Below the pieces are notes generated by a model. The model was not told where the DNA came from, made no database searches, and saw only the letters and a list, made by a program, of their open reading frames with translations. A DNA stretch of 64,000 nucleotides from Candidatus Zixiibacteriota bacterium (GTDB lineage Bacteria; UBP14; UBA6098; JBKHBT01): positions 13,442 through 77,441 of the forward strand of contig JBKHBT010000004.1 of assembly GCA_046542255.1 (NCBI GenBank), written 5' to 3'. Shown one piece after another: positions 39,246-55,229 of this stretch. Made by a program: the position numbers and the translations under genes. Positions within the stretch are counted from its first letter, which is position 1; each line of letters starts with the position of its first letter.

Positions 39246-40760
39246 ATGAAAAATAATATTATCAATTCTGTACTTTTGATATTAATAATTTCTATTGCTA
39301 TTTCAAGCGACAATGAAGGATTGACTTTTATGCAGAATAGCATTGTTAATCGGCTATCCCATCAATTTGAAATTCGTTCTGATATATTTCGCCCTACCGA
39401 TGAGCCTGCTCCTTTCGAAGAGATTGAAAAAAACATTGAAGCTATGGACTCTATCGACGATAATAATCGAATGTGGTTGGATTTTGCGAAAGAAAAGATG
39501 AATATTTACCCAAATAAGGATGATGAAATGGCAATCTGGCTGGAACCGGGTTTTTGGGGAGTGGCCAATGATAAAGATAGGAAGGATACATATTTCTGGG
39601 GCCGATTCGGAAGCGCATTTCAAAAAGGTATGGTAACAATGCAAGGCGTGTATGATGTCGATTTTGGCCTAATCGATGATTCTACTTATACAGGTTTCAA
39701 ATGGGATGGCAAATCCGGAAGCCTGGGGCAGAGCTATATTGCTTTCTCAAAACCAGAATGGCGTTTTTTATTAGGCAATGATTATATTCATTGGGGTAGA
39801 GGCCTTCTTTTTAATAAGAATATGAAAACGATGCCAATGCTGCAGTACAGAATAGATTTTTGGGATAGGCTAAGAATCAGCTATATGCATGGTAAACTGG
39901 ATAGGTTTATATTTCCAAAGCCCTATATAGATCCAGGTGTGCATAATACAATATATATAGAACGTTATCTTGCCGGCCATAAAGCCGAATTATATTTCGA
40001 TAAGTTTTCTTTGTATTTTATCGAGAGTGTTGTCTATGGTGGTGAATCTCGCCCACCAGAGCCCCATTACATTCTTCCTATAACATGGATGCACGGCGAA
40101 CAGCTTAATAGTGGTATCGATGATAATACTTTTATTTCTGCCGGTGGCAAGCTTAATTTGAATAATTTTCTTTTCGAGGCCGAGTTTATGATCGATGATT
40201 ATCAATACGAGAAAGAGTCTATCGGCGACCAGGAGCCCAACGAACTGGGCTTAAGTGTTTATGGCGAATATGCTGATGAACTTTTTGGAAAGTGGATAAA
40301 TTATTCTGTTTTATACGAAGGCATTACTAATCGAACCTACAATCAAAGATTTGAAACAAATCGCTATCTTTATAAAAATAAACCGATCGGTTCTCAGATC
40401 GGAAACGATGCAGACATTATAAGAATTAGAGTCGATTATTGGTATAGTCCATTTTGTATATTTTCCTTGACAGAAGAGTTTGGCCGTCAAGGAGAAGGCG
40501 GTATATATAATGACTGGGATAGCCCCTGGGATACAGATTCATCTATGACATATACAGAGCCATTTCCGACGGGTATTATTGAAAAGCGTCAGACAACAAG
40601 ACTCGATATATTCGGATTCTGGAATAATCATCTCAATTACAATCTTTTTTTCTCATATTCCGACTTTAAAAATTTTAATAATATAAAAAATAAAAAAGAT
40701 TCAAACTGGGAAATTGGATTTGATATAAAATACAATTTTCACTATGGTTACGGCGGTTAA
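39246..40760 (+). CDS. secreted/outer-membrane hypothetical protein (possible Wzi-like OM protein, weak)
   Basis: Signal peptide MKNNIINSVLLILIISIAIS. Aromatic/Gly-rich 504 aa ending in HYGYGG. Last gene of the LPS cluster. Confidence 0.45.
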   Translation: MKNNIINSVLLILIISIAISSDNEGLTFMQNSIVNRLSHQFEIRSDIFRPTDEPAPFEEIEKNIEAMDSIDDNNRMWLDFAKEKMNIYPNKDDEMAIWLEPGFWGVANDKDRKDTYFWGRFGSAFQKGMVTMQGVYDVDFGLIDDSTYTGFKWDGKSGSLGQSYIAFSKPEWRFLLGNDYIHWGRGLLFNKNMKTMPMLQYRIDFWDRLRISYMHGKLDRFIFPKPYIDPGVHNTIYIERYLAGHKAELYFDKFSLYFIESVVYGGESRPPEPHYILPITWMHGEQLNSGIDDNTFISAGGKLNLNNFLFEAEFMIDDYQYEKESIGDQEPNELGLSVYGEYADELFGKWINYSVLYEGITNRTYNQRFETNRYLYKNKPIGSQIGNDADIIRIRVDYWYSPFCIFSLTEEFGRQGEGGIYNDWDSPWDTDSSMTYTEPFPTGIIEKRQTTRLDIFGFWNNHLNYNLFFSYSDFKNFNNIKNKKDSNWEIGFDIKYNFHYGYGG

Positions 40761-40826: not shown

Positions 40827-40854
40827 TTGACAAAGCTTAATATATCAATATAAT
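40827..40854 (+). promoter_or_regulatory. sigma70-like promoter upstream of the first giant T9SS cargo gene
   Basis: TTGACA (40827-40832), 16-nt spacer, TATAAT (40849-40854). Lies ~280 nt upstream of the start, implying a long leader. A second weaker TTGACA at 40967. Confidence 0.4.
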
Positions 40855-41131
40855 TAGTTAATGATAAGTTGTTTTTTAACATGTTTTTAGAGCAATTAGA
40901 AAAAGGAGAAAAAATAAAATTGGAGCTTTTTTTGGTATTTGATTTGATATTAAACACAAAAAAGGACTTGACAGAGCAATGAGGCTACTCTATTTTTAGC
41001 CAAACTTTATAGTGTTGGAGCAAAAGAAATGCTTCATTGTGTATTAATGAAAAATGGGTGTGAAAACGAAAAGAACAAAAATAAAGGAGGTTACAAAAGT
41101 GAAACCCAATAGCCGAAAGGAGACAAGCGCT

Positions 41132-44100
41132 ATGGGAAACAGGCTAGTAATAGCTGTTTTGTTAGGGCTTCTGCTTTTTTCTGCCGTATCATTCGGTCAG
41201 GATTGGCAGTACGCTAACGTTTTTAATCTCGTAGAGGAGGGCTATGGACCGTGGATTCCAAGTTGGTATACCACGAGTTACGGACGTGTAGATTCCTACA
41301 CACCGAGTACCCCTAGTCTGCGAACTGCCACAATGCGTACAGCAGATGGCAGAGATGAACGACCTGTTCCTTTGAACCATGATCAGACAGTATTGCGTTT
41401 TGATCTTCTTAGCTCGACTGACGATTTCTTCCTTAAGGGTGTTACAGTCACTCTTATTGGAAGTCCGGATTTCGATCCTAATGAAGATTTGGCACCAATA
41501 CATCCTGATACTGCAAAAACTCTTTTCTGTGTTGATGACACAGTAAAGAGTTTTTATACAGGATTCCAGTTCTATGTAGAAAAAGGTGAACTGGCTGGTT
41601 CAAACGTTGATAGTCTCGATACAGTAGATATCGAAGACATGCCGACACCATTACAGTTTATCGATGATACTCTGATGGCCGGCACACCGCCTACAGAAAG
41701 AATATATCCAGCAGCACAAAGCTGGGAAGATGTTACCGGTACATTTGCTGGTACCTATCCAGCAGGCTGGAAAGTCTGGCAGGCACAAATTAACTTCAGA
41801 AGACACATTGAGATCAGGAATGAAGCTGATATCGATCCTGCTTATGGATTACCATTCCTTAGAATGTGGGTTTTGATGAAACCCATAGGCTGCCACGAAT
41901 GTATTCCGAGCAGCAATGATGGTGGATTCATAGAGGGTCTTTCAAATCGGGACTCATTCTATGTTCAAATTCATGAAACAAATGATCTTCATGTATACGA
42001 TGTTCTCGGCGTTGATGATGCATCTGGTTTAGAGATCATCAGAGATGTTGAGCTTCCAATTGGAAGAACTGAAGTACGATGGGATACACCAGATCCTGAT
42101 CCAGCAGATGCATCTCGTTGGGCATCATCTGGAATGCTTATTGGTGGAGATACAATTCCGCCATTCATTACAGACCTAATTCCACGTAATGAAAACCCGA
42201 CTAATGGCGATGAAACCGATCAAGGTGGACTCACCGGTTGTGATGAGATTGGCGATGAGATCTGGACTGCAGACTCTACGCAGCCAATTTCCTTCGTAGC
42301 TTATGACAAATCGACATGTATCGATTCAGTATTTGTCGAGTTAAGGCATATTAATGACGGCATCCCGACTTATTTCCCAAGAAGAGTCGACTCTATATAC
42401 TTCCGCAGTCAGCTTGCATCATCTGCCGATATTGAAAACGGCGGAGCAGGCCAGCCATGGGAAGTTAGTGTCAGGCCTTATGGTGGCTCATGGTCCCCAT
42501 GGGAAGAAGTTTTTGATGTTGCCAGCGAATTCGAAGTAGTGCAATCAGGCATGTGTGCAGATGGCTATTGTGGTCATGATACTTTCTTTATCGATGTTGG
42601 AAGAGATATTGACAATCATTATCTTCCTCCGTTTATCGATGGTGCACATATCGAGGTAACTGTCAGAGCATTCAATAGAAACTACAATGTTGGTAGCTCC
42701 TGGGCACATAGTGAGCCTTATGCTTATGATGCCTATCAGGATACCACCTGGGATTTCTATGTAGATCTTTCTGGCCCGAATGCTGAGCTTGTTTGTCCGG
42801 GTACATCCGATGACAATCTCACCGAAGAATTCTACGGTGGCGCAGCAGGCTGGAGACAGGATTATATCGAAGGCGAGAATATCGACTGGAGATGGATATC
42901 CGATAGTTTACCATTAGTTCAAGTACATTTATATGATGACTATGAAAATGTCCATGACGAAACAAATCATGGTGATGCTTTCCCATATTGGACAGGAGCA
43001 GAAGGCGGATGTGGAATCAATGAAAGAGATTTCGAATTTGCTTTCGTCGTTAATCGTCTAGTATGTGATGACATTAGTCATTCTTATATAACAGATACCT
43101 TTGTCGTTGACCAGACCGATTTGAACCAGGGTTGCTGGTTTGATGAGCATGTCAATGGCGAAGAAGGTCATATGTGGATAAATTTCGAAGATCTCGAAAC
43201 ATATAGGACCGACCTCACCGGCACAATGCTCGATGGAGATCCAATTCTTCCATTTAGAAGCGGTGACGTTCTTGAAATCCACCAGACAGAGCTATTTGAT
43301 GATCCCGACTATGGTCAGGGAACATTCAGATATGATGTTTATGGTTGGTTCCATACAGGCCCAGCCGACTTAGAAGTTGGCGGAAGCTATGGAATTGCAG
43401 AAGCACCAGATCCAAACTATGGTGTACAGAATAGAAGAGAAGTACAGGGCGATAGGCATATTCCTGTCGATGACCAAGCTGCTGCTATTTATGGCGTAAC
43501 AGCTAGAAGAGATACCCTTGGTATCCTAAGAATCGACCTCGAAGGCCCGGTTGCTCCAGATACATTCTTCTACCCACCGCATGGTTGGGTTACTTCTGAT
43601 ACGCTTCAGGTAATCACAGTCGATCTTTATGATCAAATTGGTTGCCCTTTAATCGATCAGAATCTTTCTGATGAAACAGACCATATACTTGACCAGTATG
43701 TTTCTGGTATTTATGGCGCAAGCTCCGATGAAAACTCCAGACTCGCAATTAACCTGGTGGTTAAGAGCGCATCTGGCGATCACCATCCAGAATATGTCGA
43801 ATTCCCGGGAAGGCCTTGGGAAGGACGTACATGGTATGTTCCTGGTTGGACAACAAATTGCTTGAGTCAGCCACATCATATCGAGAAGATTAATGAACGC
43901 TGGGGAACAAGGCTAACGTTTGCTCCGAGACAGCATGCGCCTTTCCGCAGTGGTGATAAGGTCTGTGTTACAGTTTATGCATGGGACAATGCAGTTACAG
44001 ACTGTGACTACGACACTATGTTTACTACAGACTTAACATGCGCAGACGGATCAACCTGGCATACAGTTGAGAACTGGATTCCAGGCCGCAACTGGGCTGA

Positions 44101-47100
44101 TGACGATTGGACTACCGACCCACTAGAGAGGACTCATGACGAAGTCGCGAGATTCTGCTTCTATGTCGATATTACTCCACCGAAATTAGTCGATAGCAAG
44201 ATTTATCCGCTTTGCGATGATACAATGACCTTCACCATCCGCGATACATCCGAAGTTATCAGCACAACATTCTGCGATGAATGGATTGCTGGTATCGGCG
44301 CAGCCGACCTTCGTATGTGGGTTTATGATGATGAAGATACAATGCCAGGCATCCATGACGATTTCTTATTCTTCAATGACTTAGTACCGGCCGTTCCGAC
44401 TGGTGCTGTCCAGGTAGACACGACTCACAATATTGTTGGCCGTGAAAATCGTTATATGTATGCCCGTATGGACTTTGGTGCCGATCCTGCACGTGAAGGA
44501 ATCATCAAAGTATGGAAAGATTGTAATGCTAACTCCTGCCACGTACTCGAGCCAGATGACAGCGTAGTCGTTGAGATCTGGGCCGGCGATAATCCGAATG
44601 TACCTTGGTATGCAGCAACTCAGAGACCTGAGTCCGAAGCTGGTTATCATGCAAGGAATACACATTCCACAGCGCCGACACAGTACTGGTGGTGGCATTA
44701 TTATGTACCTGGATTCCCGATCTCTGCAGGAGACGAATACTGGATTCCATGTCCAGCAACTTCCTGGAGACGCGGAAACCACGCTTATACCGACCTCGAC
44801 CACACAGAAGATGGCCTTGGCTGGGAAAACCATGTTTACTACAACTGGGAAAACCCGAACTGGGATAAGATTCACCAGGAAGAGTTTATTGTCCAGTCCG
44901 AAGTATGGTTAAAACAGGTACAGTGGTTTAATGACAGTGCCTGGATGAAATATCGTTCTGCATTGCAGTACAATTATCCTCCAGACCTTCATGGTAAATA
45001 TACCACATTATGGGCAATTCCTGACACAACAGAAGCAGCAGACTTCTATAGTGAGATGGAATCCATGGATCCATATCTTGGAACCTATGCACGTGATCTT
45101 CAGTTCATCGAAGCTGAAATCTATACATGCACAGACAGCATCATCTGGGAAGCTTTCTGGGAGAGCACGCCTCATGACGATACAATCACCTGGAGAACCC
45201 CGAGAGTCGAACTTAAGCTCTGGGATTCCGAAGGCGAACTCGTATGGGAATACGTCCACCATGAAGACTATGACTTCATAGGCGGCGAACATTGCGATCC
45301 TTGCTTCCTCGAATACGAAGCCACAAGAGACTGCTGCAAAGACGGCGGAATCATGAGAATCGGACCTATCGAGATGATTCATCCGTGGCTTGAAGAAGTT
45401 CGCCAGGACTCCGTACCAGAGAGTGAACTTCACCCAGACAATGAAGCCTATGTCATTACAGATGGCGAAGGCGAACCTGTCACAGATGACGAAGGCGAAA
45501 TACTTTACACAGTTTATGGTTACCAGCACGGTGACCAGCTAGAAGTAACATTCGGCTTCGCATCAAGAACACCAAATATGTTCACAGATTCTTCTGATAT
45601 TCATAATTATAATGAGTATCACTGGTTCTATGATATAGATATGCAGGCACCGACTGCAAGATTCCGCAGACTCGAAGGAACACGTGGATATGCAGAAGTT
45701 GACTGTGAAATGATGCATGTGGATAATAATGAAGTCCGCATCAGACTCGAAGACATTGCAGACGGCGATGTTGGCCTACATCCAGGCGGCACAGATGCTG
45801 ACTGGGCAAGCACCTATCCTATCCCGATACTCAAAGAAGGTACCGACCTTGTTAAGTATATGTGGGGAACAGGTGATGATGAGCCTGCAGGACTCGAATA
45901 TGCAACTTCGACACATTATATCTATCAGAATGAGTCTCACGTTGTTCAGAACTGTGCAGAGGAAGATTCACTTGCAAGAGCTTATACTTTTGCAACACCG
46001 ATCACCATGTACAGTGGCCTTGAAGACGGAGATCCTCCAACTGTTTTAGATAGAACAATCGAACAAGACAGTATCATGATTGCTGATTCGCTTTATGTCG
46101 AAGCAGTTATTCAGGACCGTCTTGGTAATGAACAATATCTCAGGTCCAATAATCTTGGACTCGACAATGGCTTACCAGAAGTCAAGGGCTTTGCCTTTGC
46201 ATCCTTCGATCCTGAACTCGATGAGTTCAATAACTGGGATGAAGACTTTGCACTCTTACCATGGGAAGTCCCTGATCAGGAATCGCTCGTAGGTGTTTAT
46301 AACTTCGGCGAAGTCTGCACAGTATTTGTCAGAATATGGTTCAATGACAATATGGACATGCGTCTTGCAGATACACATACCGGCCATATCGTTAGATTCC
46401 AGCCAGATGGTTGGACTCACTGGTTCCCGGTAATTCCGATAGACACAGAACTACATCCTTCTCTCGGAATGTATCCGCTTGCACAGAGATATGTTGATTA
46501 TGCTTATGGCGATGACTATGGTGCTGGCACACTTCTCAGATCTGTTGATGGAGAAGATGGTGAGATCACCGAAGCTGGCGAAGCTGAAATGCTCGACAAT
46601 GGTTGGAACTCCGACCGCGAGTGGATTGGTTATATGGTTATTGCTGGCGATGACATGATGGATGGTATTGGCAAAATCAGAGTCCAAGGCTTTGATGACA
46701 ATGCTGGTAACACCATGCTCGCACGTGACTTCAACTTCAGAATTGAATCTCAGTATATCGATCCTTGCATGATCTGGCCAGACATGGACAGACTCGACAC
46801 CGAGCCTATCGATCCATGGACAGGCGAAACAGATGATGAGCTTGTTGTAACAGGTTATGATATAGGTGATTACTTCTGCAGCTATGAGCCGCATGAAGAT
46901 TGCTATCCTATCGTTTCCGACTGCTTCGATCGTACAATCACCGACAGTGTCGTATTCGAATTCTGGTGGGATGATTCTATGATGACCGTAGAAGACATGT
47001 ACGAGAGAATCGATACTATTGAAATAGATCCCGATTCAACAGTACATGATACAGTTTGGGTCGATGCCGACTTCCATCATGAAATTGATGATATGCGATC

Positions 47101-50100
47101 AGAAGATATCTGGACAGAAGATGGCGAAGAATGGTATGCCCAGACAACATGCGATGTTCTCGACATTCTCCACGAATGGTATGAGGACGGCGTTATGCAT
47201 GATGGCCGCTTCGACAAGTACGTGACCATCCGCTTCAGAGTCTATTCAAGATTCTATCCGGAAGAGTATGTTGAGTCTTACACATGGAACCTCCGTGTAG
47301 ATAATGAAAAGACCTATCCAGATCTCACAGAAATCGGCGGCGGAGAATTGCCACCGGGAACTGCAATGCACGTAATTCCTGCAGTTACTGAAGAGATCAA
47401 GATTTGTATCACCTCTGATGAGATTGATCAGATCGACTATATCAACTTCACATTGACAGACATGGTAACAGATGTCGTTTATGGAATCACCGATACCATT
47501 GGTGACCCAGAAGATTCATTCCTCCAGGTCGGCGATGCTTCCTATGAAGCAACCTACGATCCTGAAGATGATGTAATCTGCTATACATGGGAAACTCCAG
47601 AAGGCCTTACACCTGGCCTATGGAAGTTCTGTGCTGAAGGTTATGATGAGATCCATATCGTAACCGATGAAGAAGACGGCGAAATAACAGGATATAATAC
47701 CTATATGCATACATTCTGCTTCTGCCGCGACAGCATCCTTGTACCGAATGAAGCATTCCTTGCAAGGGGCGACCACTATGAAGACGCTATCGCAACAATC
47801 TGCGAGAACTATCCTGCAGAACCAAATTGCGACAGCATCTATCCATGGGATATCGAGAATATCTATCCAGATTGGCCAGCATGGTCACATATAGATGGCT
47901 CGATTATTGAAGGCTACGACCATGTCAACAGATTCCAGATTACCACTTTCAATAATCCTGATTGGACAGAATCTGATGTTCTAATGAGAGATTATGTTGA
48001 AACCGGTGGATATCCTGGAGACTCTGTCTTTGTCATGTTCAGAGCTGGAGATGCACTTTGGGTCGATATGCATATTGAAGACGAGTACGGTGGAAATATC
48101 TCAGGCTCCAACCTCGAGATTATTCATCCGCTCGATTCTACCGATATCAGAGACTACATGGGTGCAGACTACTATGTCTATCCATGGGTAATAGACGATC
48201 AGGAAAACCGCTATGACGGCCCTGTCCGTGTTACATTCACAACATACAGAGAAAACTTCGCAGGCGATACAATCGCAACAGATCATGTTACATTCGTATA
48301 CCTGGATACTTATGATCCAGAATACAAAGTTAGCATGACAAGAATGGATGAAAGTCCATTACGTAGCTGTGTTAGCGATGAATATCCGCTCGAAGAAGCT
48401 ATCTGGTGTACAAACGATGATACAGTCTTTATTAAAATCGATTGGTATCAGACAGTATTTGACCAGACAGAAGATGTTTCTGGCTATACTGCCTACGATG
48501 AAGAATTCAATAGCCGTGTTTGGGAACATCTCAGACTATCTATTGATGGCCAGCCACACATGGGCTTCCATGTCGATGATCCTAATGACCTTCTCCAGTC
48601 CAGACTCTGGCAGAGAGATATCATAGGGCCAGTCGATGGTTATATCCCATTCTGGCTCTCACCGATCGATGATGGACCAATGCCTTGGGATGACTTTGGC
48701 GACGATAACTATGAATATCGTTGGCATGTCTCCGATGACCTTCGCGGTCAGGGTATCGCAGACATCTTAGTCAAGGGTCGCGATGCTGCAGGTAATATCC
48801 TTACATATGAAGAAGCAAGAATATCTAATTCATACGGTAAGAAAGTTCTTATCGATGTTGAAGATCCTACAATCGATCCGGAATTGGTCCACCTCACCGC
48901 CGAAGAGATGGAAGCCGATCCGGAAGCATTCGATGACAACTACCTTGGCGAAGGATTTGAAGACCCTGTATCCGGTGGATATGTATTCATCGAGATCTGG
49001 GACCTTGACGAGACAGTCATGCTCGGAGACGATATCTGGGTTAATGATGATGGCTCTGTCGATCCTGCCATTGTAGACCTTATTTCCGGCGATTCAGTTC
49101 TCGTATGCGCAGTTGACTTAGCTGGCAACCGCACCTGCGAGCCTGTTGAAGTAATGCCACATGTTGAGTGCTGCTCATATCATCTCTATCCTGGATTCAA
49201 TATGGTCGGTATCTCCGTCCATCCAGAAGACTCAACCGACCTTCTCGTCGAAAATGTCTTCCCAGGACTCGATGTTTACACACTCGACGGTGGTGTATAT
49301 AATGAAGTACCTGACGGCACATACCTCAACCACAGCGAGGGATACCTTGTTATGGCTGAAGTCGAGACAGACATTGTCCTTTGCGGCGATCCTGTCGAGT
49401 CATTCGAAGCCACAGGACTTCTCCCGGGCTGGAACCTTATTGGTGGTCCGTGGACAACAGTTAGAACAGTTGACGCTGGCGTCGATCCAGCCGATGCTAT
49501 CGACCTCGAAGCAGTCAATGTATATGATGGTGAAACCGGTTCTTATGTACCGACCACCGAATTTGCACACTGCCGTGGCCATCTCGTAATGGTCAGAACA
49601 ACTGATACAGCAACAGTTACTATCCCAGATGATACTCCAGGAGCAAAATATGTCTATACAGGCAAAGAAGCTTCTGAGCTCTGGAATGGTATAATCGATG
49701 TCAAATATGACGATGCAATGCGCAGCCTCACCTTTGGTGTTGCAAGCGGTGCAACCGATGGTATCGATGCTAATGACGTTGCTCTCTTCCCAACACTTCC
49801 AGGCGAAACAGATGCTTATCTCGATAATCATCTCGCCAAGAGTGTGGTAGCCAATGACTATCAGATCGAATGGGACCTCGTTCTACATCAGGATGCAGCT
49901 ATCTCACCGAATGTCGCTGGCGTACCAGAAAATTGGGAAATCACTATCGATGGTATCAATCTCAGAGATGTTGAGAACCTCGACCTCGAAGCAGGAACCT
50001 ATAAGATTTCTGCCAATGTCGCCGAGATTCCAACAAACTTCGAGCTTGCTCAGAATTCCCCGAACCCATTCAACCCGATCACATCGATCAATTACTCGGT

Positions 50101-50311
50101 ACCTTCCGAGTCTCATGTAAACATCGAGATCTTCAATGTTCTTGGTGAAACAGTTACACAGCTGGTTGATGAAGTTCAGGATGCTGGCAAGAGAACCGTC
50201 CGTTGGGATGGAACCGATAGCGAAGGCAATAGCGTAAAATCTGGTGTCTACTTCTATAAGATGACAGCAGATGGCTATAGCCAGACTAGAAAGATGTCAC
50301 TCGTCAAATAA
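41132..50311 (+). CDS. giant (3060-aa) acidic secreted protein with T9SS C-terminal sorting domain (cargo A)
   Basis: Signal peptide MGNRLVIAVLLGLLLFSAVSFG, mature N-terminus QDW. Very D/E/W/Y-rich with no recognisable catalytic motifs. C-terminal ~85 aa (NPFNPITSINYSVPSESHVNIEIFNVLGETV ... SGVYFYKMTADGYSQTRKMSLVK) is a type-A T9SS CTD. RBS AAGGAGACA before the ATG at 41132. Alternative GTG at 41098 or the track start at 41054. Confidence 0.85.
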   Translation: MGNRLVIAVLLGLLLFSAVSFGQDWQYANVFNLVEEGYGPWIPSWYTTSYGRVDSYTPSTPSLRTATMRTADGRDERPVPLNHDQTVLRFDLLSSTDDFFLKGVTVTLIGSPDFDPNEDLAPIHPDTAKTLFCVDDTVKSFYTGFQFYVEKGELAGSNVDSLDTVDIEDMPTPLQFIDDTLMAGTPPTERIYPAAQSWEDVTGTFAGTYPAGWKVWQAQINFRRHIEIRNEADIDPAYGLPFLRMWVLMKPIGCHECIPSSNDGGFIEGLSNRDSFYVQIHETNDLHVYDVLGVDDASGLEIIRDVELPIGRTEVRWDTPDPDPADASRWASSGMLIGGDTIPPFITDLIPRNENPTNGDETDQGGLTGCDEIGDEIWTADSTQPISFVAYDKSTCIDSVFVELRHINDGIPTYFPRRVDSIYFRSQLASSADIENGGAGQPWEVSVRPYGGSWSPWEEVFDVASEFEVVQSGMCADGYCGHDTFFIDVGRDIDNHYLPPFIDGAHIEVTVRAFNRNYNVGSSWAHSEPYAYDAYQDTTWDFYVDLSGPNAELVCPGTSDDNLTEEFYGGAAGWRQDYIEGENIDWRWISDSLPLVQVHLYDDYENVHDETNHGDAFPYWTGAEGGCGINERDFEFAFVVNRLVCDDISHSYITDTFVVDQTDLNQGCWFDEHVNGEEGHMWINFEDLETYRTDLTGTMLDGDPILPFRSGDVLEIHQTELFDDPDYGQGTFRYDVYGWFHTGPADLEVGGSYGIAEAPDPNYGVQNRREVQGDRHIPVDDQAAAIYGVTARRDTLGILRIDLEGPVAPDTFFYPPHGWVTSDTLQVITVDLYDQIGCPLIDQNLSDETDHILDQYVSGIYGASSDENSRLAINLVVKSASGDHHPEYVEFPGRPWEGRTWYVPGWTTNCLSQPHHIEKINERWGTRLTFAPRQHAPFRSGDKVCVTVYAWDNAVTDCDYDTMFTTDLTCADGSTWHTVENWIPGRNWADDDWTTDPLERTHDEVARFCFYVDITPPKLVDSKIYPLCDDTMTFTIRDTSEVISTTFCDEWIAGIGAADLRMWVYDDEDTMPGIHDDFLFFNDLVPAVPTGAVQVDTTHNIVGRENRYMYARMDFGADPAREGIIKVWKDCNANSCHVLEPDDSVVVEIWAGDNPNVPWYAATQRPESEAGYHARNTHSTAPTQYWWWHYYVPGFPISAGDEYWIPCPATSWRRGNHAYTDLDHTEDGLGWENHVYYNWENPNWDKIHQEEFIVQSEVWLKQVQWFNDSAWMKYRSALQYNYPPDLHGKYTTLWAIPDTTEAADFYSEMESMDPYLGTYARDLQFIEAEIYTCTDSIIWEAFWESTPHDDTITWRTPRVELKLWDSEGELVWEYVHHEDYDFIGGEHCDPCFLEYEATRDCCKDGGIMRIGPIEMIHPWLEEVRQDSVPESELHPDNEAYVITDGEGEPVTDDEGEILYTVYGYQHGDQLEVTFGFASRTPNMFTDSSDIHNYNEYHWFYDIDMQAPTARFRRLEGTRGYAEVDCEMMHVDNNEVRIRLEDIADGDVGLHPGGTDADWASTYPIPILKEGTDLVKYMWGTGDDEPAGLEYATSTHYIYQNESHVVQNCAEEDSLARAYTFATPITMYSGLEDGDPPTVLDRTIEQDSIMIADSLYVEAVIQDRLGNEQYLRSNNLGLDNGLPEVKGFAFASFDPELDEFNNWDEDFALLPWEVPDQESLVGVYNFGEVCTVFVRIWFNDNMDMRLADTHTGHIVRFQPDGWTHWFPVIPIDTELHPSLGMYPLAQRYVDYAYGDDYGAGTLLRSVDGEDGEITEAGEAEMLDNGWNSDREWIGYMVIAGDDMMDGIGKIRVQGFDDNAGNTMLARDFNFRIESQYIDPCMIWPDMDRLDTEPIDPWTGETDDELVVTGYDIGDYFCSYEPHEDCYPIVSDCFDRTITDSVVFEFWWDDSMMTVEDMYERIDTIEIDPDSTVHDTVWVDADFHHEIDDMRSEDIWTEDGEEWYAQTTCDVLDILHEWYEDGVMHDGRFDKYVTIRFRVYSRFYPEEYVESYTWNLRVDNEKTYPDLTEIGGGELPPGTAMHVIPAVTEEIKICITSDEIDQIDYINFTLTDMVTDVVYGITDTIGDPEDSFLQVGDASYEATYDPEDDVICYTWETPEGLTPGLWKFCAEGYDEIHIVTDEEDGEITGYNTYMHTFCFCRDSILVPNEAFLARGDHYEDAIATICENYPAEPNCDSIYPWDIENIYPDWPAWSHIDGSIIEGYDHVNRFQITTFNNPDWTESDVLMRDYVETGGYPGDSVFVMFRAGDALWVDMHIEDEYGGNISGSNLEIIHPLDSTDIRDYMGADYYVYPWVIDDQENRYDGPVRVTFTTYRENFAGDTIATDHVTFVYLDTYDPEYKVSMTRMDESPLRSCVSDEYPLEEAIWCTNDDTVFIKIDWYQTVFDQTEDVSGYTAYDEEFNSRVWEHLRLSIDGQPHMGFHVDDPNDLLQSRLWQRDIIGPVDGYIPFWLSPIDDGPMPWDDFGDDNYEYRWHVSDDLRGQGIADILVKGRDAAGNILTYEEARISNSYGKKVLIDVEDPTIDPELVHLTAEEMEADPEAFDDNYLGEGFEDPVSGGYVFIEIWDLDETVMLGDDIWVNDDGSVDPAIVDLISGDSVLVCAVDLAGNRTCEPVEVMPHVECCSYHLYPGFNMVGISVHPEDSTDLLVENVFPGLDVYTLDGGVYNEVPDGTYLNHSEGYLVMAEVETDIVLCGDPVESFEATGLLPGWNLIGGPWTTVRTVDAGVDPADAIDLEAVNVYDGETGSYVPTTEFAHCRGHLVMVRTTDTATVTIPDDTPGAKYVYTGKEASELWNGIIDVKYDDAMRSLTFGVASGATDGIDANDVALFPTLPGETDAYLDNHLAKSVVANDYQIEWDLVLHQDAAISPNVAGVPENWEITIDGINLRDVENLDLEAGTYKISANVAEIPTNFELAQNSPNPFNPITSINYSVPSESHVNIEIFNVLGETVTQLVDEVQDAGKRTVRWDGTDSEGNSVKSGVYFYKMTADGYSQTRKMSLVK

Positions 50312-50325
50312 CGATACATCTGGTT

Positions 50326-50355
50326 TTGGGCTCTCCCTTCAATGGGAGGGCCCAA
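50326..50355 (+). terminator. GC-rich hairpin after cargo gene A (terminator-like, no adjacent U-tract)
   Basis: Stem TTGGGCTCTCCC, loop TTCAAT, stem GGGAGGGCCCAA (12 bp with one G-U). T-rich stretch only ~25 nt downstream. Confidence 0.3.
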
Positions 50356-50498
50356 ACCTCTAAGGGAGGTTTAATTGATTTTTATTGAAAACGGTGGTCA
50401 GGCAAGGCAGACAGGCTAACCCGAAAGGGGGAGACAGGAAAAAATGTTATCGATTTGTAAACGAGAAAAAAAAGAACTTATAAAAGGAGGAGACCAAT

Positions 50499-53400
50499 AT
50501 GAGAAAAGTGGGTTTGTCCAGAGGACTTAAGGTCCTGTTCATCCTACTGATTTTCTCGGGAGTTATTTTTGCCCAGGATTGGGCACTTCCGCTGAATTTG
50601 GTTAGTGGTGACGGAGTTGACACTATTACGGTAACACTCGGCGTTCACTATACCGCTACAGACTTATTCGATGAAGGACTGGATATGGCATTTCCGATGG
50701 CGCCACCACCGCCAGTACGTTATGCTTATTTCCCGATAGAAGACCCTGAATATCCGGGTATCAATATGCTCGGTACAGACTTTAGGGATCCAGTATCGGA
50801 ACATGAATGGGTCATTGTACTAGACCGTGACTATACATCCACTGAAAGAGAAGTGTTCTGGGATATGGAAGACCTTCCTTTCCCGGATTCACTAGAAGAT
50901 CTGCTACTTGCAGAAGAGTTGATGATTGGCGCTGCATATCCATCCGAAGAAGTACCAGATACAGCATGGGTAGATATGTCTGAAGTTGAAAGTTTCAATT
51001 TCAGCGCAGGTAAAGTTGTTCATGTCAAATTTATGCCAGAAGGCAGTATCGACATGCACCCACCAACAGTTACTGCATTCTATCCAGAAGATGGAGCTGA
51101 TGGTGTCAGAAGAGTAAGGCCAATAGAATTCAATATCCAGGACGATATTACTGGAGTCGATGAGTCTTCTATTACATTACTAATAAATGATGTCGAAGTA
51201 CCTCACGATGATTTCATTGTTATGGATCCTATTCTTAATGGTTTCCATATCGAATATCTTCCTGAAGATGACTGGCCAGAAATGGAAGATATCTGCGCAA
51301 AAATCATTGCTGCAGACCTGGCCGATCCTGTCCATGTCATGGATACATTCGAATCATGTTTCTCGACACCTTCTGAGCCGCCAGATACATTCCCACCATA
51401 TTATGAGGATCTCTCAATAGAAGACGGAGATACTCTTAATATATGGGAAAGCGTATTTATCAAGCTGCTCGATACGGAACGTGGGGTCGATGAATCTTCG
51501 ATTACTGTTACTGTCAATGGCGTTGAATATACTAATTTTGAGCTTTCTCTATTCACAGAATTCCTATATGATTATAATATAGAAATCATGCCTCCTGCGA
51601 GTGGTTGGAATCCTGGGGAGTACTATGAAGTGGTCGTTCATGGTTGTGATAGAGCAGATGAGCCCAATTGTGTAGATACAACATTTACATTCGTTGCTGG
51701 CGGCATCGAGCCACCACCATTCGAATATTCAATGTATGCTTATTCTATCGAGGGCACAGACACAACCAGAAATATGTTAAGTATCGGAACCGATCCAGAT
51801 GCTACTGAAGGTTATGACAGCGGTTATGATATCGCTTCACCATCACCTGATTTTACAACATTTGGATATTTCCCACTCTCGGATCCGACTTATCCATATG
51901 TAAATAAACTTTCAAAAGATGTTAAAAGAACTGCTCAGAGCGTTACATGGCAGATCGAATTCAATAATCCAGACGATGTCGTTGGCATTGCATGGGATAT
52001 TGATGAACTCGAAGAGATAATCGATACAATCGGTTCGATTAGAATTGGTTATGGAAATAGAGACAGCTTGCGCTGGAGAGACATGCTTCTCTATGACCAC
52101 ATCGATTTTGCTCCAGAGCATAATTGCTATATTCGTTATACGACGGTTACAACAGATACAGCTGCTCCGAGAGTATGGGGACGTGATCCTTATCCGGCAG
52201 AAGTAGATGTTCCACTTTCAACGAATATTCAATTTGATCTGTTAGATCCTGAAAGCGGCGTAGATCCAAGCTCTATCGTGCTTCGTTTCGGTACAATTGG
52301 TGGCTCACTCACAACGGTAGATCCCGAAGATTATACACTCGAAATGTTACCAACAGGCTACAGAGTGGTTTATGATAGACCTGGAATGCTCAACTATAAT
52401 ACAACATACGTAGTTAGAGTTACAGCTTCCGATGAAGCCCCATCAGCAAATTCCGCAACTCATGAATGGCAGTTCACCACAACGACTACTTGTGCTCCTA
52501 TGTTTGAGAGCCCACTTAGCTTGACCGATGGTGAAGATGATATTTCATTAGTTATCGGAACAGATGACGATGCATTGGTTGGCCGCGATGACATGGATGT
52601 ACCAATTCCAGTCGCACCACCAAGCGGATTCTTCGCATATTTCCCAATTGAAGACGATCCTATTTATGACATGCTTTCAACCGATATCAGGCCAAATTGC
52701 GCAGGAGAACAGGTTTGGGAGATCATTAAAGACCGAGCAGACGGCCCAGTTACAATTTCTTGGGATACCGAAGATATCTTTTTCGATGAGGAATGGCAAC
52801 TAAGAGTTGCAGCCGCTGCAATTGGCGAAGAACCAGAACATGCCGATTATGAAACTATAATGACCGAAGTTGACGAATTCACTTTTGCCGCTGGCGAAAA
52901 TGCATTCATCAAACTCGGTATTTGGGACACAACAGAATCTTACTGCATAAATGGAAGCGTTTCTCTATGGGGAAGCGATTCTACGACAATCGTAAATGTC
53001 AGTGTTGCTCCTATTGGCGTAACATACGACTCACCACCAGGCGGCGGCCCATTCGAGGTTTGTCACCTGCCAAATGATACAGAATATACATTAGTGCTCT
53101 CCGCAGAAGGCTATGTACCAGAAACATTGTCTGTTTACATTTCCGGTGAAGACTACATAATTGCCGACCCAATCGAACTCAGGCCTCCGGGAACATTTGT
53201 TCACGGTACGGTTATGGTCGAAGGTGAAGATGCTCCAGGTATAAGCATACTTCTAGGTGAAGATGCTACTGTTACAAGAGCCGATGGTTCCTGGGCAATC
53301 GATAATGTCCTTCCTGATGTAGATATGATATGCTATTCCGGATTTGGTCTTGGATATCCAGATACATGCGAAGAAATCGATGTTACCGGTGAAGACACTG

Positions 53401-55229
53401 TATATGTCGAATTCGATTATGTTGCTCCTTCACTAAGAGTATATGGAACAGTTAGCTTAGATGGCGAACTGACCGAAGGTGTCGATATCTATAGATGCGG
53501 TGAAGATACACCGATTGCAACTTCCGATTCACTCGGAAACTACGAAATCATCGATGTAGAAGTCGGGCCACATTGCCTCGTAGCTCGCTACCCAGGTTAT
53601 GATGACCATGAAGAGAGCTTCTATGTTACCGATAATACCGAAATTGATTTCAACCTTATTCCTGGTGACATCACAATCAGCGGAACAGTCTCAAATGACT
53701 GTAGCGAAGATGTAGCAGGTCTGACTGTTGAAATTTCCGGCCCAGCACCATCTGTCTATCTCGGACCCGATGGTTCCTATGAATTTGAAGGACTCGACTG
53801 GGGCGAATATACAATTTCAGTTATCGGCGAATATCATGCAATGACCGAAACAACAGTTACCACAGAAGGTGATATGGTAGTCGATATTACTGCTCCATGT
53901 CTCCCATGTGTTACAAGTTTCACAGTTGTTGCAGCAGAGCTTGAGCGTCCGCTCGAAGGTGATGAAGAACTTAACAATACAATCACCTGGGCAGCTCCTG
54001 TAACAGATGTTCCAGTAGATCATTATGAACTCTATCGAAATGGAACAATGTATGCAGCAGATATTCCATCTGATACAGAAGAATATATCGATACAGATGT
54101 CGATGCTGATGCAAGATATGACTATTACTTAGTAGTAATCTATGATGTAGAAGGCGAATACAATTACAGCATGGATTGTGCTTCAGGTTCCGGAACACCA
54201 ACCATGACTCCTGATATGAATGCAATTCTTATCATAGACTATGATGGTGAAGCAACACCACTCAGCGATGGCACAGTCGCTACTGAAGTTGCTATGGAGA
54301 ACCTGCTTCTTAGCCCATCGTTAGCTATGGAAGATGTCGGTATCACAATCACCGATCAGAATCCTCCAGACCTCAATGGTTATGAACTTGCCGACTATGA
54401 CTTCGTTATTGTCGAGCTTGGTATCAGAGATTCTGATGATGACCTTATGACTGATGATGTTTGTGAGGACCTCAATGCATATGCAGATATGGATAGGCCA
54501 GGCGGAACAGCTATTTTAGTCGAAGGCCCTGACTTTGGTATGAACTATGGTTCTGCCAGTGGCGTTCAGAGAGACTTCTTCAATAAATTTGGTATCAGCC
54601 ATAGTGCAAGCCACGATGGAAGTGATGAGACCGAAGGTAATGTCGACTCATTATTCATCTCCAGGTCATTTGCACATTTCGAGCCATATGGTACATATGC
54701 TTATCGAACAGAAGCCGACAGATTTGTTGACGACTTCACAGCAGAAACAGCAATTCCATTTGTATATGGAAATGATATGCTCGTTCGTGCAACAGAGAAA
54801 GTTGTCGATGGCAATAATTATAGATTTGCTTCTGCAATCTATACGGCTGCTGTCTCAGGAAGCTATGGCTCAACAGAAATGGCTCATAGAATTATTGGCC
54901 ATTATTTGAACCGTGTAGGCATAGCTAATGAAGCTATCACAGAAGTCGAAGTTACAAAGGCACCTGAATCATTCGAGATTAGCAGAGTCTATCCGAATCC
55001 ATTCAACCCGGCAACAACGATTGAGTTCGATGTTTCTGAAGATGCCAATGTAACTCTCGAAGTTTACGATGTTACCGGTAATCTGGTAAGAACTCTCGTA
55101 GAACAGCACATGACAACCGGCAAATACAATGTTGACTTTAATGCCAGTGGACTGGCATCTGGAACATACTTTGTCAAACTGGATGTTAATGGCAAGACAG
55201 TTACAAATAAACTGATGTTCATGAAATAA
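50499..55229 (+). CDS. giant (1576-aa) acidic T9SS cargo protein B of a modular paralog family
   Basis: Signal peptide ending IFA, then QDW. Three copies of a novel ~140-aa module (cores at 50682-50756, 51825-51899, 52587-52667). Ig-like Big_5/SbsA-type domains. Four carboxypeptidase-regulatory-like domains. FN3-like domain. Alpha/beta module (LIIDYDG ... FVIVELG ... ILVEGPDFG). T9SS CTD (YPNPFNPATTIEFDV ... GTYFVKLDVNGKTVTNKLMFMK). RBS AAGGAGGAG. Confidence 0.9.
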   Translation: MRKVGLSRGLKVLFILLIFSGVIFAQDWALPLNLVSGDGVDTITVTLGVHYTATDLFDEGLDMAFPMAPPPPVRYAYFPIEDPEYPGINMLGTDFRDPVSEHEWVIVLDRDYTSTEREVFWDMEDLPFPDSLEDLLLAEELMIGAAYPSEEVPDTAWVDMSEVESFNFSAGKVVHVKFMPEGSIDMHPPTVTAFYPEDGADGVRRVRPIEFNIQDDITGVDESSITLLINDVEVPHDDFIVMDPILNGFHIEYLPEDDWPEMEDICAKIIAADLADPVHVMDTFESCFSTPSEPPDTFPPYYEDLSIEDGDTLNIWESVFIKLLDTERGVDESSITVTVNGVEYTNFELSLFTEFLYDYNIEIMPPASGWNPGEYYEVVVHGCDRADEPNCVDTTFTFVAGGIEPPPFEYSMYAYSIEGTDTTRNMLSIGTDPDATEGYDSGYDIASPSPDFTTFGYFPLSDPTYPYVNKLSKDVKRTAQSVTWQIEFNNPDDVVGIAWDIDELEEIIDTIGSIRIGYGNRDSLRWRDMLLYDHIDFAPEHNCYIRYTTVTTDTAAPRVWGRDPYPAEVDVPLSTNIQFDLLDPESGVDPSSIVLRFGTIGGSLTTVDPEDYTLEMLPTGYRVVYDRPGMLNYNTTYVVRVTASDEAPSANSATHEWQFTTTTTCAPMFESPLSLTDGEDDISLVIGTDDDALVGRDDMDVPIPVAPPSGFFAYFPIEDDPIYDMLSTDIRPNCAGEQVWEIIKDRADGPVTISWDTEDIFFDEEWQLRVAAAAIGEEPEHADYETIMTEVDEFTFAAGENAFIKLGIWDTTESYCINGSVSLWGSDSTTIVNVSVAPIGVTYDSPPGGGPFEVCHLPNDTEYTLVLSAEGYVPETLSVYISGEDYIIADPIELRPPGTFVHGTVMVEGEDAPGISILLGEDATVTRADGSWAIDNVLPDVDMICYSGFGLGYPDTCEEIDVTGEDTVYVEFDYVAPSLRVYGTVSLDGELTEGVDIYRCGEDTPIATSDSLGNYEIIDVEVGPHCLVARYPGYDDHEESFYVTDNTEIDFNLIPGDITISGTVSNDCSEDVAGLTVEISGPAPSVYLGPDGSYEFEGLDWGEYTISVIGEYHAMTETTVTTEGDMVVDITAPCLPCVTSFTVVAAELERPLEGDEELNNTITWAAPVTDVPVDHYELYRNGTMYAADIPSDTEEYIDTDVDADARYDYYLVVIYDVEGEYNYSMDCASGSGTPTMTPDMNAILIIDYDGEATPLSDGTVATEVAMENLLLSPSLAMEDVGITITDQNPPDLNGYELADYDFVIVELGIRDSDDDLMTDDVCEDLNAYADMDRPGGTAILVEGPDFGMNYGSASGVQRDFFNKFGISHSASHDGSDETEGNVDSLFISRSFAHFEPYGTYAYRTEADRFVDDFTAETAIPFVYGNDMLVRATEKVVDGNNYRFASAIYTAAVSGSYGSTEMAHRIIGHYLNRVGIANEAITEVEVTKAPESFEISRVYPNPFNPATTIEFDVSEDANVTLEVYDVTGNLVRTLVEQHMTTGKYNVDFNASGLASGTYFVKLDVNGKTVTNKLMFMK

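Follow-up and report, generated by a model that had tools for sequence, protein, structure and literature searches.

A giant predicted surface protein of a Candidatus Zixiibacteriota bacterium and its possible role, with a conserved neighbour, in a T9SS-anchored cell coat

Gene A encodes a giant secreted protein, and its sequence supports display of that protein on the cell surface. It belongs to a small, uncharacterised family that, judged by its homologues, is real and under constraint. Our best explanation, held tentatively and at somewhat under an even chance, is that A is a structural surface-coat protein, anchored through the T9SS and working with the product of the adjacent gene B, and not a classical repeat-built adhesin. 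An earlier note on this DNA had proposed a giant adhesin or S-layer anchor. The signal peptide and type A CTD agree with a giant secreted surface protein, but the term anchor is not quite right because A itself would be anchored, through its CTD.

Gene A occupies positions 41132-50311 (+) of the window, the whole 64-kb stretch of DNA analysed. It is a single ORF, 41054 to 50311 (+), of which 9.2 kb are coding from the supported start. The ATG at 41132 is preceded by an RBS (AAGGAG, 41117..41122, +, read from the sequence) 9 nt 5' of it. Start and RBS align with those of homologues, which carry AAAGGAGAA 5' of their start codons, bearing out the single ORF and the start proposed earlier. The proposed length of 3060 aa after the signal peptide was slightly off: the whole protein is 3,059 aa long, of which ~3,037 aa remain once the predicted signal peptide is removed. 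NCBI lists an identical protein, MFP4458249.1, from a Candidatus Zixiibacteriota MAG.

An ORF of such unusual size without known domains was at first suspected to be an artefact of chimeric assembly, gene fusion or pseudogene decay. No support for this was found. Full-length, collinear, stop-free homologues are present in ~20 independent assemblies from different projects, which excludes the assembly error or frameshift that the earlier note had warned of. Start codon, RBS and CTD are all conserved, and the protein is evidently under purifying selection from end to end. The homologue set refutes the artefact reading, to which we give a negligible probability.

Two promoter-like sites lie upstream of gene A. 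The distal site (TTGACA-16-TATAAT, 40827..40854, +) agrees with the sigma-70 consensus at 12 of 12 positions and has an A/T-rich tract upstream; it is a consensus match only. Its pattern, TTGAC...TATA(T/A)TT, was kept across 6 aligned loci. The proximal site (TTGACA-17-TATTTT, 40968..40996, +; 10/12 consensus) is preceded by AAAAAAGG, and the block AAAAAAGGxCTTGACAG...TATTTT was invariant across 6 aligned loci. Both sites were kept in five other loci. They predict a leader of ~130-270 nt, in which an Rfam scan found no match, and agree with the gene's own promoter and long leader claimed before. Abundantly expressed surface-layer genes typically have tandem promoters and long leaders. After the stop codon, sequence reading and a terminator scan showed two adjacent hairpins (50328..50372, +). 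Hairpin 1 (50328-50353, +), read from the sequence, has a 10-bp GC-rich stem; hairpin 2 (50354-50372, +), from the scan, is terminator-like with a T-rich tail. No sigma-70-like site was found in the gap between genes A and B.

The family comprised 20 non-redundant full-length sequences of 2,971-3,387 aa, collinear and ~30-60% identical, among which conservation was uniform (0.4-0.8) along the whole length. There were 11 full-length clusters within a collection of 5.8 billion clusters, and species-representative genomes contributed 19 loci. When 1.84 billion proteins were searched exhaustively with a profile, almost nothing outside the family was returned. A distant collinear subfamily was found in a Gemmatimonadota-labelled genome. 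The N-terminus of A is shared with the distant subfamily of P0048 at 26-31% identity, and the positions invariant in both subfamilies are occupied mainly by D, G, N, W and P, while His, Ser, Cys and Glu candidates are rare among them. Against one homologous locus (L001), the N-terminal 500 aa were ~42% identical, compared with 47.5% for RmlD, 31% for the Wzi-like protein and 30.5% for B; this part of A is conserved nearly as well as cytoplasmic RmlD, and better than B or the Wzi-like protein. A literature search on Zixibacteria or UBP14 with T9SS or giant proteins gave nothing on this family. Judged from isolate names, the source MAGs came from sediments and hydrothermal or spring sites, with names suggesting Guaymas, Pescadero and Zodletone-type habitats.

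By inspection, A begins with a Sec signal peptide (aa 1-22, 41132..41197, +), MGNRLVIAVLLGLLLFSAVSFG, followed by QDW. The N-termini of all family members are likewise hydrophobic and end in FAQ or FGQ. The protein ends in a predicted type A T9SS CTD (aa 2977-3059, which with the stop codon spans 50060..50311, +), as expected of T9SS cargo. TIGR04183 matched aa 2977-3055 with 33.1 bits (NCBIfam cutoff 23), and Pfam FlgD_ig matched the same residues with 39.3 bits (cutoff 27); Por_Secre_tail (PF18962), at 26.6 bits, fell just below its Pfam cutoff of 27. HHalign paired the CTD with those of B and C at 99%, and a CTD match was seen in all 11 family members scanned.

Between these ends lies the mature body (aa 23-2976, 41198..50059, +), which is hyper-acidic, Lys-poor, Trp-rich and predicted all-β. 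It had no Pfam, NCBIfam or PDB-sequence match. In A, Pfam and NCBIfam matched only aa 2977-3055, and at E<=1 they found nothing besides the C-terminal tail in any of the 11 members, in keeping with the earlier statement that no domain other than the CTD is known. A PDB sequence profile search with A gave only FlgD-type matches to the CTD, and one with aa 1503-2680 gave no match. What had been noted by eye also held: HExxH is absent, and no RTX or cadherin model of Pfam or NCBIfam matched any of the 11 members. CxxCH is likewise absent from the protein, and a heme or metalloprotease reading was rejected on these two motifs. The most conserved core (aa 1503-1880, 45638..46771, +) contains WFNDNMDMR, GWTHWFPV, NSDREWIGYM and GFDDNAGN. 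Its conservation peaks at 0.71-0.81 over aa 1641-1880, and it is also alignable to P0048.

The absence of internal repeats claimed in the earlier note was nearly borne out: a single 19-nt TRF match (score 31) was the only repeat in the DNA, and self-BLAST was empty. At the profile level HHalign revealed one exception, a cryptic duplication in tandem of a 'GWN' domain of ~80 aa (aa 2682-2756 and aa 2760-2841; 49175..49654, +), with a probability of 96% and E 3.8e-9 for 20-sequence profiles and 65% with 11 sequences. The claims that A lacks the 'APP-YFP module' and shares nothing with B, C and D beyond the CTD were wrong. One pre-CTD module (aa ~2851-2960, 49682..50011, +), with the pattern W...LTFGvasGATDGiDanD...P..PG...AYL...W.L, is common to A, B and C. 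It matched the B modules at 28-176, 406-516 and 667-770 with HHalign probabilities of 94.9%, 88.8% and 84.1%, and the C module at 398-537 with 92.4% (E from 5e-8 to 7e-6). At its N-terminus A begins with QDW like B and C, and the shared module is absent there (HHalign <1%).

Structure prediction gave a partial view of the body. AlphaFold2 modelled aa 24-1012 (11-sequence alignment) with a mean pLDDT of 41.9, too poor for a fold search on that model. The model of aa 1503-2680 had a mean pLDDT of 49.4 and was usable only at aa 2302-2442 and 2572-2680; the conserved core was poorly modelled (pLDDT below 45), and ~1,900 residues in all, the core included, are without a confident model. The first usable part (48035..48457, +) is a β-sandwich region of strands only (pLDDT ~70-77) and falls where A is most similar to the P0048 subfamily (29-31% identity). 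The second (48845..49171, +), which starts with VLIDVEDPTIDP and ends with AVDLAGN, is a confidently modelled β-sandwich (pLDDT 80-86) of an Ig-like, Big_6-like domain. Predicted secondary structure was almost entirely strands in sandwich-sized units. Foldseek returned strings of MG, Ig, FN3, cadherin and BIg domains, including the ice-binding adhesin MpIBP (4p99, E 7e-6; 5irb) and protocadherins, at TM scores normalised to the query of 0.07-0.13, a likeness only at the generic β-sandwich level. The per-segment modelling suggested in the earlier note gave weak all-β models whose best parts are Ig-like. Because both models are of low confidence, a chain of β-sandwiches is solid only for ~250 residues.

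Features of Big_5 (PF13205) and Big_6 (PF17936) domains recur along A: a junction motif 'VDxxxP' at domain starts (aa 545, 1013, 2392 and 2575) and 'D-x-A-G-N' near domain ends (aa 1855, 2551 and 2662). P0048, a collinear distant homologue, matched Pfam Big_6 (30.8 bits, cutoff 27.6) at a position equivalent to A 2629-2668, within the stretch equivalent to aa 2572-2680, and Big_5 is present in B and D. In A, neither model reached E<=1, nor was that threshold reached in 10 close homologues; the Ig-like domains of A are too divergent for Big_5 or Big_6 membership at curated thresholds.

The composition of A is extreme in Trp and Asp, as the earlier note had stated. The whole protein has 11.5% D, 3.2% W and 1.4% K, with a net charge of ~-418; the mature body has 11.7% D and 1.29% K, with a net charge of -417. 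The mature bodies of B and C are also poor in Lys (0.82% and 0.49%), whereas the CTDs of A, B and C contain 5.9-7.1% (A: 5.9%), and the contrast between body and CTD holds across the A family. In all three proteins it is only the mature body that has an excess of Asp and Trp and a depletion of Lys. Cytoplasmic neighbours have 7-10% K and a normal pI, so the depletion is not a proteome-wide bias, and a 'salt-in' halophile proteome was rejected as the source of the acidity. A Lys-normal CTD on a Lys-poor body is the pattern expected if the tail were removed and only the body faced outside.

The sequon D(S/T)(A/I/L/V/M/T), used for O-glycosylation in Bacteroidota, including Tannerella forsythia (PMC8550257), occurs 41 times in A against 14.5±3.5 expected (2.8-fold, z 7.5). 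Control motifs were flat, and cytoplasmic neighbours had 16 sequons against 14.7 expected. The enrichment was found in all A family members. The excess could instead come from a β-strand motif that recurs in A, such as TADSTQPIS (at 379) and TSDTLQVIT (at 821).

Directly upstream of A lies a gene for a Wzi-like outer-membrane protein of 504 aa (39246..40760, +), which matched Pfam Caps_assemb_Wzi with 34.4 bits (cutoff 30.1). It had no PDB or NCBIfam match, so the Wzi-like assignment is that of Pfam alone. Downstream, gene B (50499..55229, +) encodes 1,576 aa with three shared modules, Big_5, CarboxypepD_reg and a type A CTD (Pfam, NCBIfam). The A homologue has a Wzi-like homologue (30-35% identity) immediately upstream in 18 loci, a B-like gene was downstream of A in every homologous locus with enough flank, and the order Wzi-like, A, B was conserved in 18 loci. 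RmlD or other sugar-nucleotide genes were upstream in many loci, including that of a distant Gemmatimonadota-labelled homologue. Genes for the T9SS machinery (SprA/Sov, PorV, PorU, PorZ, PorK-N) were absent from the 64-kb window.

Several known systems resemble A in part. TfsA and TfsB of T. forsythia are, like A and B, large secreted proteins with T9SS-type CTDs; both are strongly glycosylated and use the T9SS to reach the surface, and their S-layer needs this system (PMC4175972). A likewise lies beside glycan-synthesis genes and is enriched in the sequon of that organism (PMC8550257). TfsA and TfsB are 133 and 151 kDa (PMC4175972) compared with ~330 kDa for A, and the host phylum differs. 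A also differs in being hyper-acidic and Lys-depleted and in having a conserved Wzi-like partner. A and B are encoded by adjacent genes for large proteins with predicted CTDs, as would be expected of a TfsA/TfsB-like pair; tfsA and tfsB are adjacent as well. We know of no solved TfsA or TfsB structure that a PDB search could have matched.

SprB and RemA of Flavobacterium johnsoniae are, like A, giant T9SS-exported surface proteins predicted to be all-β. SprB has many SprB repeats and a type B CTD. In contrast, A has a single 2 x 80-aa duplication and a tail that fits the type A model. Pfam at E<=1 found no SprB repeats (PF13573) or similar tandem repeats in the 11 members, and NCBIfam at E<=1 gave only the type A model and type A cargo CTD regions for A. 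The standard SprB or cadherin-like adhesin that the earlier note had named as counting against its proposal was not found among the Pfam and NCBIfam matches of the 11 members. MpIBP of Marinomonas primoryensis and LapA-type RTX adhesins are, like A, very large, very acidic β-sandwich surface proteins. They use type I secretion with C-terminal RTX repeats, are retained by an N-terminal plug and gain their length from ~100 near-identical BIg repeats. A differs in its Sec signal peptide and T9SS CTD and has neither an RTX motif nor a repeat array; Pfam and NCBIfam gave no match to cadherin, BIg or RTX nonapeptide repeats in A. The C-terminal Ig-like sorting domain of A matches that of type A CTD cargo of Porphyromonas gingivalis such as RgpB (TIGR04183), and mature A would begin with Gln, following the Bacteroidetes Q-rule (PMC5837995). 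In such cargo the CTD is removed and the protein is joined to a glycolipid through a linking sugar (PMC7468200), the mechanism we infer for A. The host of A, however, is outside Bacteroidota, and the body of A is unrelated and about five times larger.

We infer that A is transported by the T9SS, loses its CTD and is anchored, binds cations, is glycosylated and serves in a coat, as follows. A would be made with a Sec signal peptide and cross the inner membrane, and its type A CTD would be recognised by the T9SS for transport across the outer membrane. After removal of the CTD, the newly exposed C-terminus would be attached to an anionic surface glycolipid, so that the 2,950-residue body, with its N-terminus distal, would project from the outer membrane or lie on it. 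The body may consist of some twenty or more Ig-like β-sandwich domains strung together, each different and most of them unrecognisable, with no repeat stalk. As a polyanion almost without lysine, it would be expected to bind divalent cations and is probably O-glycosylated. The Wzi-like protein, A and B would form a three-gene surface module building an S-layer-like coat in which A is of fixed size. A and B may contact each other, or a common partner, via the shared pre-CTD module. The logic of this coat would be that of the T9SS-dependent TfsA/TfsB layer of Tannerella.

The main rival, which we consider possible but doubtful, is that A is a long-reach adhesin with a C-terminal anchor and a Ca2+-stiffened β-sandwich extender, whose conserved N-terminal part (aa 23-545) would attach to a partner cell or to a surface, mineral or polymer. 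The very large size, the C-terminal anchor, the distal N-terminus conserved in the P0048 subfamily and the Foldseek matches to Ca2+-stabilised MpIBP and protocadherins are consistent with it, as are the high acidity and the conserved D/N/G motifs (DDPDYGQG, WFNDNMDMR, VDDQDNRYDGP). Attachment would be useful at the sites suggested by the isolate names. However, known giant adhesins vary in length via tandem near-identical repeats, whereas A is essentially repeat-free and nearly fixed in length over roughly 30-60% identity. Its uniform conservation leaves no fast-evolving tip or stalk, no known adhesin domain was matched, and an autonomous adhesin needs no obligatory pairing with B and a Wzi-like gene. 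A coat partner of B fits better than a repeat-stalk adhesin because of the fixed length, the uniform conservation, the near absence of repeats, the strict pairing with the Wzi-like gene and B, and the conserved tandem promoter-like sites. Against the coat reading, Por_Secre_tail was just under its cutoff and the window contains no T9SS machinery gene; an adhesin could equally well be anchored at its C-terminus and carry a conserved N-terminal domain at the distal end. To our knowledge, a protein of ~330 kDa would also far exceed known S-layer subunits.

Charge might instead outweigh architecture, and A might serve mainly as a polyanionic sink or shield that traps Ca2+, Mg2+ or metal ions, or withstands attack by chemicals or proteases in sulfidic or hydrothermal sediment. 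The net charge and the scarcity of Lys, which are found family-wide but only in the exported bodies of A, B and C, would suit this role, as would the habitats that the MAG names suggest. Charge alone would not, however, keep 3,000 collinear residues, hundreds of them invariant and many of these Trp, Gly and Pro. We consider this unlikely as the main role; it is not really an alternative, since the two readings are compatible and this one probably describes a property of the coat. Very unlikely, in our view, is a surface enzyme or a multi-enzyme or binding scaffold, for example in polysaccharide or protein degradation, with a catalytic domain too divergent for profiles. Many T9SS cargo proteins are hydrolases (PMC10202324, PMC5445135), high Trp and Tyr are common in carbohydrate-binding surfaces, and the residues lacking a confident model leave room for such a domain. 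Searches of Pfam, NCBIfam and PDB sequences nevertheless matched no enzyme family, even at E<=1-10 with any member or profile. The predicted strands in sandwich-sized units, the absence of HExxH and the scarcity of His, Ser, Cys and Glu among invariant residues also argue against an enzyme.

A bolder form of the coat reading, which we regard as rather unlikely, predicts that the Wzi-like protein, A and B constitute an undescribed bacterial surface layer with A as its non-repetitive, hyper-acidic, lysine-free, glycosylated lattice or scaffold subunit of fixed geometry. A would be held by the CTD-derived glycolipid link and a Wzi-type lectin barrel, with divalent-cation bridges. The three genes occur in uncultured candidate phyla of the FCB group (Zixibacteria/UBP14), and MAGs labelled Gemmatimonadota and Delongbacteria carry distant versions. 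At ~330 kDa, A would be much larger than any other subunit of this kind that we know of.

The conservation of ~2,950 consecutive residues in ~20 species-level genomes with no recognised domain marks a gap in domain catalogues, and the family is nearly invisible among 1.84 billion representative proteins. The Lys-poor body with a Lys-normal CTD and the sequon enrichment are simple rules that could help to spot, in further candidate phyla, T9SS cargo that has been processed and proteins that may be glycosylated. Even if A were only another large adhesin, it would be a new family with one shared module and one small duplicated domain annotated. A, B and the Wzi-like protein offer a defined three-gene module for surface studies of lineages known only from metagenomes (Zixibacteria/UBP14 and relatives). 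If the coat reading is true, T9SS-dependent surface-layer assembly would extend well beyond Bacteroidota and to a new size class.

Gene A lies within a single open frame on the + strand of the window (41054-50311). Its start is the ATG at 41132, with AAGGAG 9 nt before it; this ribosome-binding site and the start codon both line up with homologous gene starts, which supports the start chosen in the earlier note. The in-frame stretch 41054-41131 showed no coding behaviour when compared with homologous loci. The product has 3,059 aa, and its N-terminus is a typical signal peptide, MGNRLVIAVLLGLLLFSAVSFG, with cleavage predicted before QDW. Pfam and NCBIfam recognized only the last ~80 residues, a type IX secretion system (T9SS) C-terminal sorting domain (CTD) of type A and of the FlgD-Ig kind (TIGR04183, 33.1 bits, cutoff 23; FlgD_ig, 39.3, cutoff 27). 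The protein contains 11.5% D, 7.6% E, 3.2% W and 1.4% K, carries a net charge of about -418, and lacks HExxH and CxxCH motifs. G+C content was 0.43-0.47 over gene A and the downstream large secreted-protein genes B, C and D (42001-64000) versus 0.34-0.42 elsewhere in the window (1-42000), probably because of Asp/Glu/Gly/Trp-rich, Lys-poor coding.

NCBI lists the identical protein as MFP4458249.1, from a Candidatus Zixiibacteriota MAG, with no annotation beyond 'FlgD immunoglobulin-like domain containing protein'. Ten further clusters (2,971-3,387 aa) matched A over 100% of its length at 36-59% identity, and 20 distinct full-length family sequences were left after duplicate removal. Among the species-representative genomes scanned, 19 A loci were found, including that of UBP14_UBA6098; isolate names of some of the MAGs suggest Guaymas (Guay16), the Auka/Pescadero vent field and Zodletone spring. 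Conservation was even from end to end (0.4-0.8 per 40-residue block), with peaks at aa 801-840, 921-960 and 1641-1880. This even conservation, together with the full-length homologues, excluded a frameshift, a chimeric assembly or gene decay.

The family is sharply isolated. When an 11-member profile was searched against 5.8 billion clusters, the score fell from 4,041 bits for the last member to 116 bits for matches to the CTD only. With the N-terminal 989 residues as query, an exhaustive HMMER search across 1.84 billion representatives returned only 10 proteins, comprising family members, fragments and three outliers. The distant homologue P0048 (2,657 aa) is collinear with A over its entire length at 15-31% identity. 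It has two relatives, one of which, P0051 (2,645 aa), is encoded in a closed Gemmatimonadota-labelled genome of 5.04 Mb (CP070758.1). P0049 is an incomplete protein found in a Delongbacteria MAG. No Pfam family besides the CTD was found in any of 11 A-family members, even at E<=1, and profile searches of all PDB sequences gave FlgD-type matches to the tail of A only. A belongs to an uncharacterized family of predicted T9SS cargo.

AlphaFold2 models of aa 24-1012 (11 sequences) and aa 1503-2680 (12 sequences) had mean pLDDT of 41.9 and 49.4, respectively. Both showed β-strand nearly throughout with short helices, and the only usable parts were aa 2302-2442 (pLDDT ~70-77) and aa 2572-2680 (80-86), the latter being the counterpart of a P0048 stretch that passes the Pfam Big_6 threshold. 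Foldseek matches in the PDB were strings of β-sandwich domains: E. coli α2-macroglobulin (5a42, E 6e-8), complement C3 and C5, the ice-binding adhesin MpIBP (4p99, E 7e-6), protocadherins and the FN3 domains of C5a peptidase, all at low query-normalized TM scores (0.07-0.13). These matches would indicate no more than a string of Ig-like sandwiches that lacks any recognizable enzyme. Junction motifs of bacterial Ig-like domains that recur by eye fit this picture: 'VDxxxP' at aa 545, 1013, 2392 and 2575 (similar at 803 and 1503) and 'D-x-A-G-N' at aa 1855, 2551 and 2662 (variants at 951 and 1662). Since about 1,900 residues are without a reliable model, a divergent binding or catalytic domain may be hidden there.

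The core observation of a giant single ORF of extreme composition, recognizable by its CTD alone, held with two corrections. A had been said to lack the module repeated in B and C, which proved wrong. HHalign comparison of 20-sequence profiles matched A residues ~2851-2960 to B 28-176, 667-770 and 406-516 (94.9%, 88.8% and 84.1%) and to C 398-537 (92.4%), with E-values of 5e-8 to 7e-6; the pattern is W...LTFGVASGATDGIDANDVALFPTLPG...AYL...W.L. The module is absent from the A N-terminus, although A starts with QDW as B and C do. The claim that A has no internal repeats stood at the DNA level and by self-BLAST: TRF gave one 19-nt match (score 31), and there were no direct repeats of at least 30 nt and no self-BLAST match. 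It failed for one cryptic duplication, in which aa 2682-2756 and 2760-2841 align at 96% (E 4e-9; 65% with a shallower profile) and carry the motifs PGFNMVGISV and PGWNLIGGPW. The C-terminal part of A is therefore ordered as an Ig-like domain that reaches to about aa 2575 and has DAAGN at its end, a Big_6-like Ig domain (2572-2680), a GWN domain in two copies (2682-2841), the module common to B and C (~2851-2960) and the CTD at the end of the protein.

The GWN(L/M)(I/V)(S/G) motif of the duplicated domain (window 49175-49654) also occurs in P0016, P0018, P0025, P0027 and P0033, unrelated large proteins from a CTD-dominated search. There it lies towards the C-terminus, between a few hundred and ~1,000 residues before the end; one of the proteins carrying it, an S8 peptidase labelled Methanosarcinales, has two copies. 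The GWN unit looks like a widespread and so far undescribed domain preceding the CTD.

Upstream of A, a perfect sigma-70 consensus match (TTGACA-16-TATAAT) lies at 40827-40854 and a second promoter-like site at 40968-40996. Both blocks are kept in five other loci (L001, L004, L016, L017 and L021) in which identity between the A proteins is only ~40%. Across the long non-coding region 40761-41131 and its counterparts in these loci, the first block, accompanied by an A/T-rich tract, reads TTGAC(A/T)-N-TATA(T/A)TT; the second reads AAAAAAGGxCTTGACAG...TATTTT, followed by AAACCTGCCG in five of the six loci, the window being the exception. Rfam gave no match in the A leader. The stop codon of A is followed by two adjacent hairpins (50328-50353 and 50354-50372), of which the second has a T-rich tail. 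The gap between A and B yielded no sigma-70-like site, suggesting that B may depend on read-through or an unrecognized promoter.

Genes for a Kdo transferase, LpxK, a GT4 glycosyltransferase, RmlD and a Wzi-like outer-membrane protein (39246-40760, +) lie upstream of A. The Wzi-like assignment came from Pfam only (34.4 bits), with no NCBIfam or PDB match. Downstream, B, C and D each have CarboxypepD_reg-type domains, and B and D also Big_5; B and C end in type A CTDs, and D continues past the window end. All 18 homologous loci with sufficient flanking sequence show the order Wzi-like, A, B, the Wzi-like gene lying immediately before A; ten of them have RmlD upstream, and the most divergent A-family locus (L023) retains these three genes only. 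The first 500 aa of A have 42% identity to L001, which puts their conservation close to that of RmlD (47.5%) and above that of B (30.5%) or the Wzi-like protein (31%). P0051 (L024, CP070758.1, 3119044-3146981) lies downstream of genes for UDP-glucose dehydrogenase, an RmlC-like protein and two epimerases, and upstream of a gene for another CTD protein. No Wzi-like gene was called between the epimerase genes and P0051, where ~850 nt are unannotated.

In L023 (4235-7284), the Wzi-like gene and A are immediately preceded by response-regulator-GGDEF and TPR/YfiO-like genes; both gene types also occur in the window (18678-20150), ~20 kb away. This arrangement hints at possible c-di-GMP control. Elsewhere in the window (6973-12992), a type IV pilus minor-pilin cluster (GspH-like, PilW-like) is followed by a 1,215-aa PilY1-like protein with a TTG start that is strongly acidic (10.9% D, pI 4.4).

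A thus combines a Sec-type N-terminus and a type A CTD with a constrained polyanionic body of fixed length, nearly free of repeats and predicted to be all-β; it has one module in common with B and lies in an invariant three-gene neighbourhood beside envelope-glycan genes. From these features we infer that A would be exported by the T9SS, have its tail removed and be attached to surface glycolipid with its N-terminus distal; no T9SS machinery genes were seen within the 64-kb window. The earlier proposal of a giant surface protein, adhesin or S-layer related, is partly supported. Known giant adhesins gain their length from repeat arrays and vary in length. A, in contrast, is a fixed set of unique, evenly conserved domains, was not found without B and the Wzi-like gene in the 18 loci, and has an interaction-type module in common with B; we therefore tentatively favour a coat component, with an adhesin as the somewhat less likely alternative, as judged from sequence. 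A precedent for the proposed A/B coat is the TfsA/TfsB layer of Tannerella, formed by two T9SS-dependent, heavily glycosylated CTD proteins (PMC4175972).

The Bacteroidota O-glycosylation sequon, D-(S/T)-(A/I/L/V/M/T) (PMC8550257), occurs 41 times in A versus 14.5±3.5 expected, a 2.8-fold excess; cytoplasmic neighbours had 16 versus 14.7 expected, and related control tripeptides showed no excess. Enrichment was seen in each family member tested (A, P0002, P0005, P0008, P0010, P0011, P0048 and P0051; z 3-8.8), and nine A sites are kept in at least 15 of 20 homologues. The excess is a lead for putative O-glycosylation, although it may instead reflect a recurrent first-strand motif.

The first mature residue after the predicted signal peptide is Gln in all four large proteins: FG/QDW in A (first codon 41198), FA/QDW in B (50574), YA/QDW in C (55574) and FG/QAW in D (60341). 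This resembles the Bacteroidetes 'Q-rule' and is absent from other exported proteins of the window (Wzi-like, TonB receptor, PilY1-like).

Cytoplasmic neighbours have 7-10% K and ordinary pI, so the acidity and Lys depletion of A are not proteome-wide. The bias is confined to the mature bodies of A, B and C, encoded within 41132-60160 (1.29%, 0.82% and 0.49% Lys), whereas the last 85 residues are normal (5.9%, 5.9% and 7.1%). The ten close homologues of A (P0002-P0011) showed 0.9-1.9% Lys in the body and 5.9-10.6% in the CTD. Selection thus acts differently on tail and body. Such a contrast would be expected if the CTD were cut off after transport, as in the canonical T9SS route (PMC7468200), and lends this indirect support, not proof. 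A Lys-poor body joined to a Lys-normal CTD could mark processed cargo.
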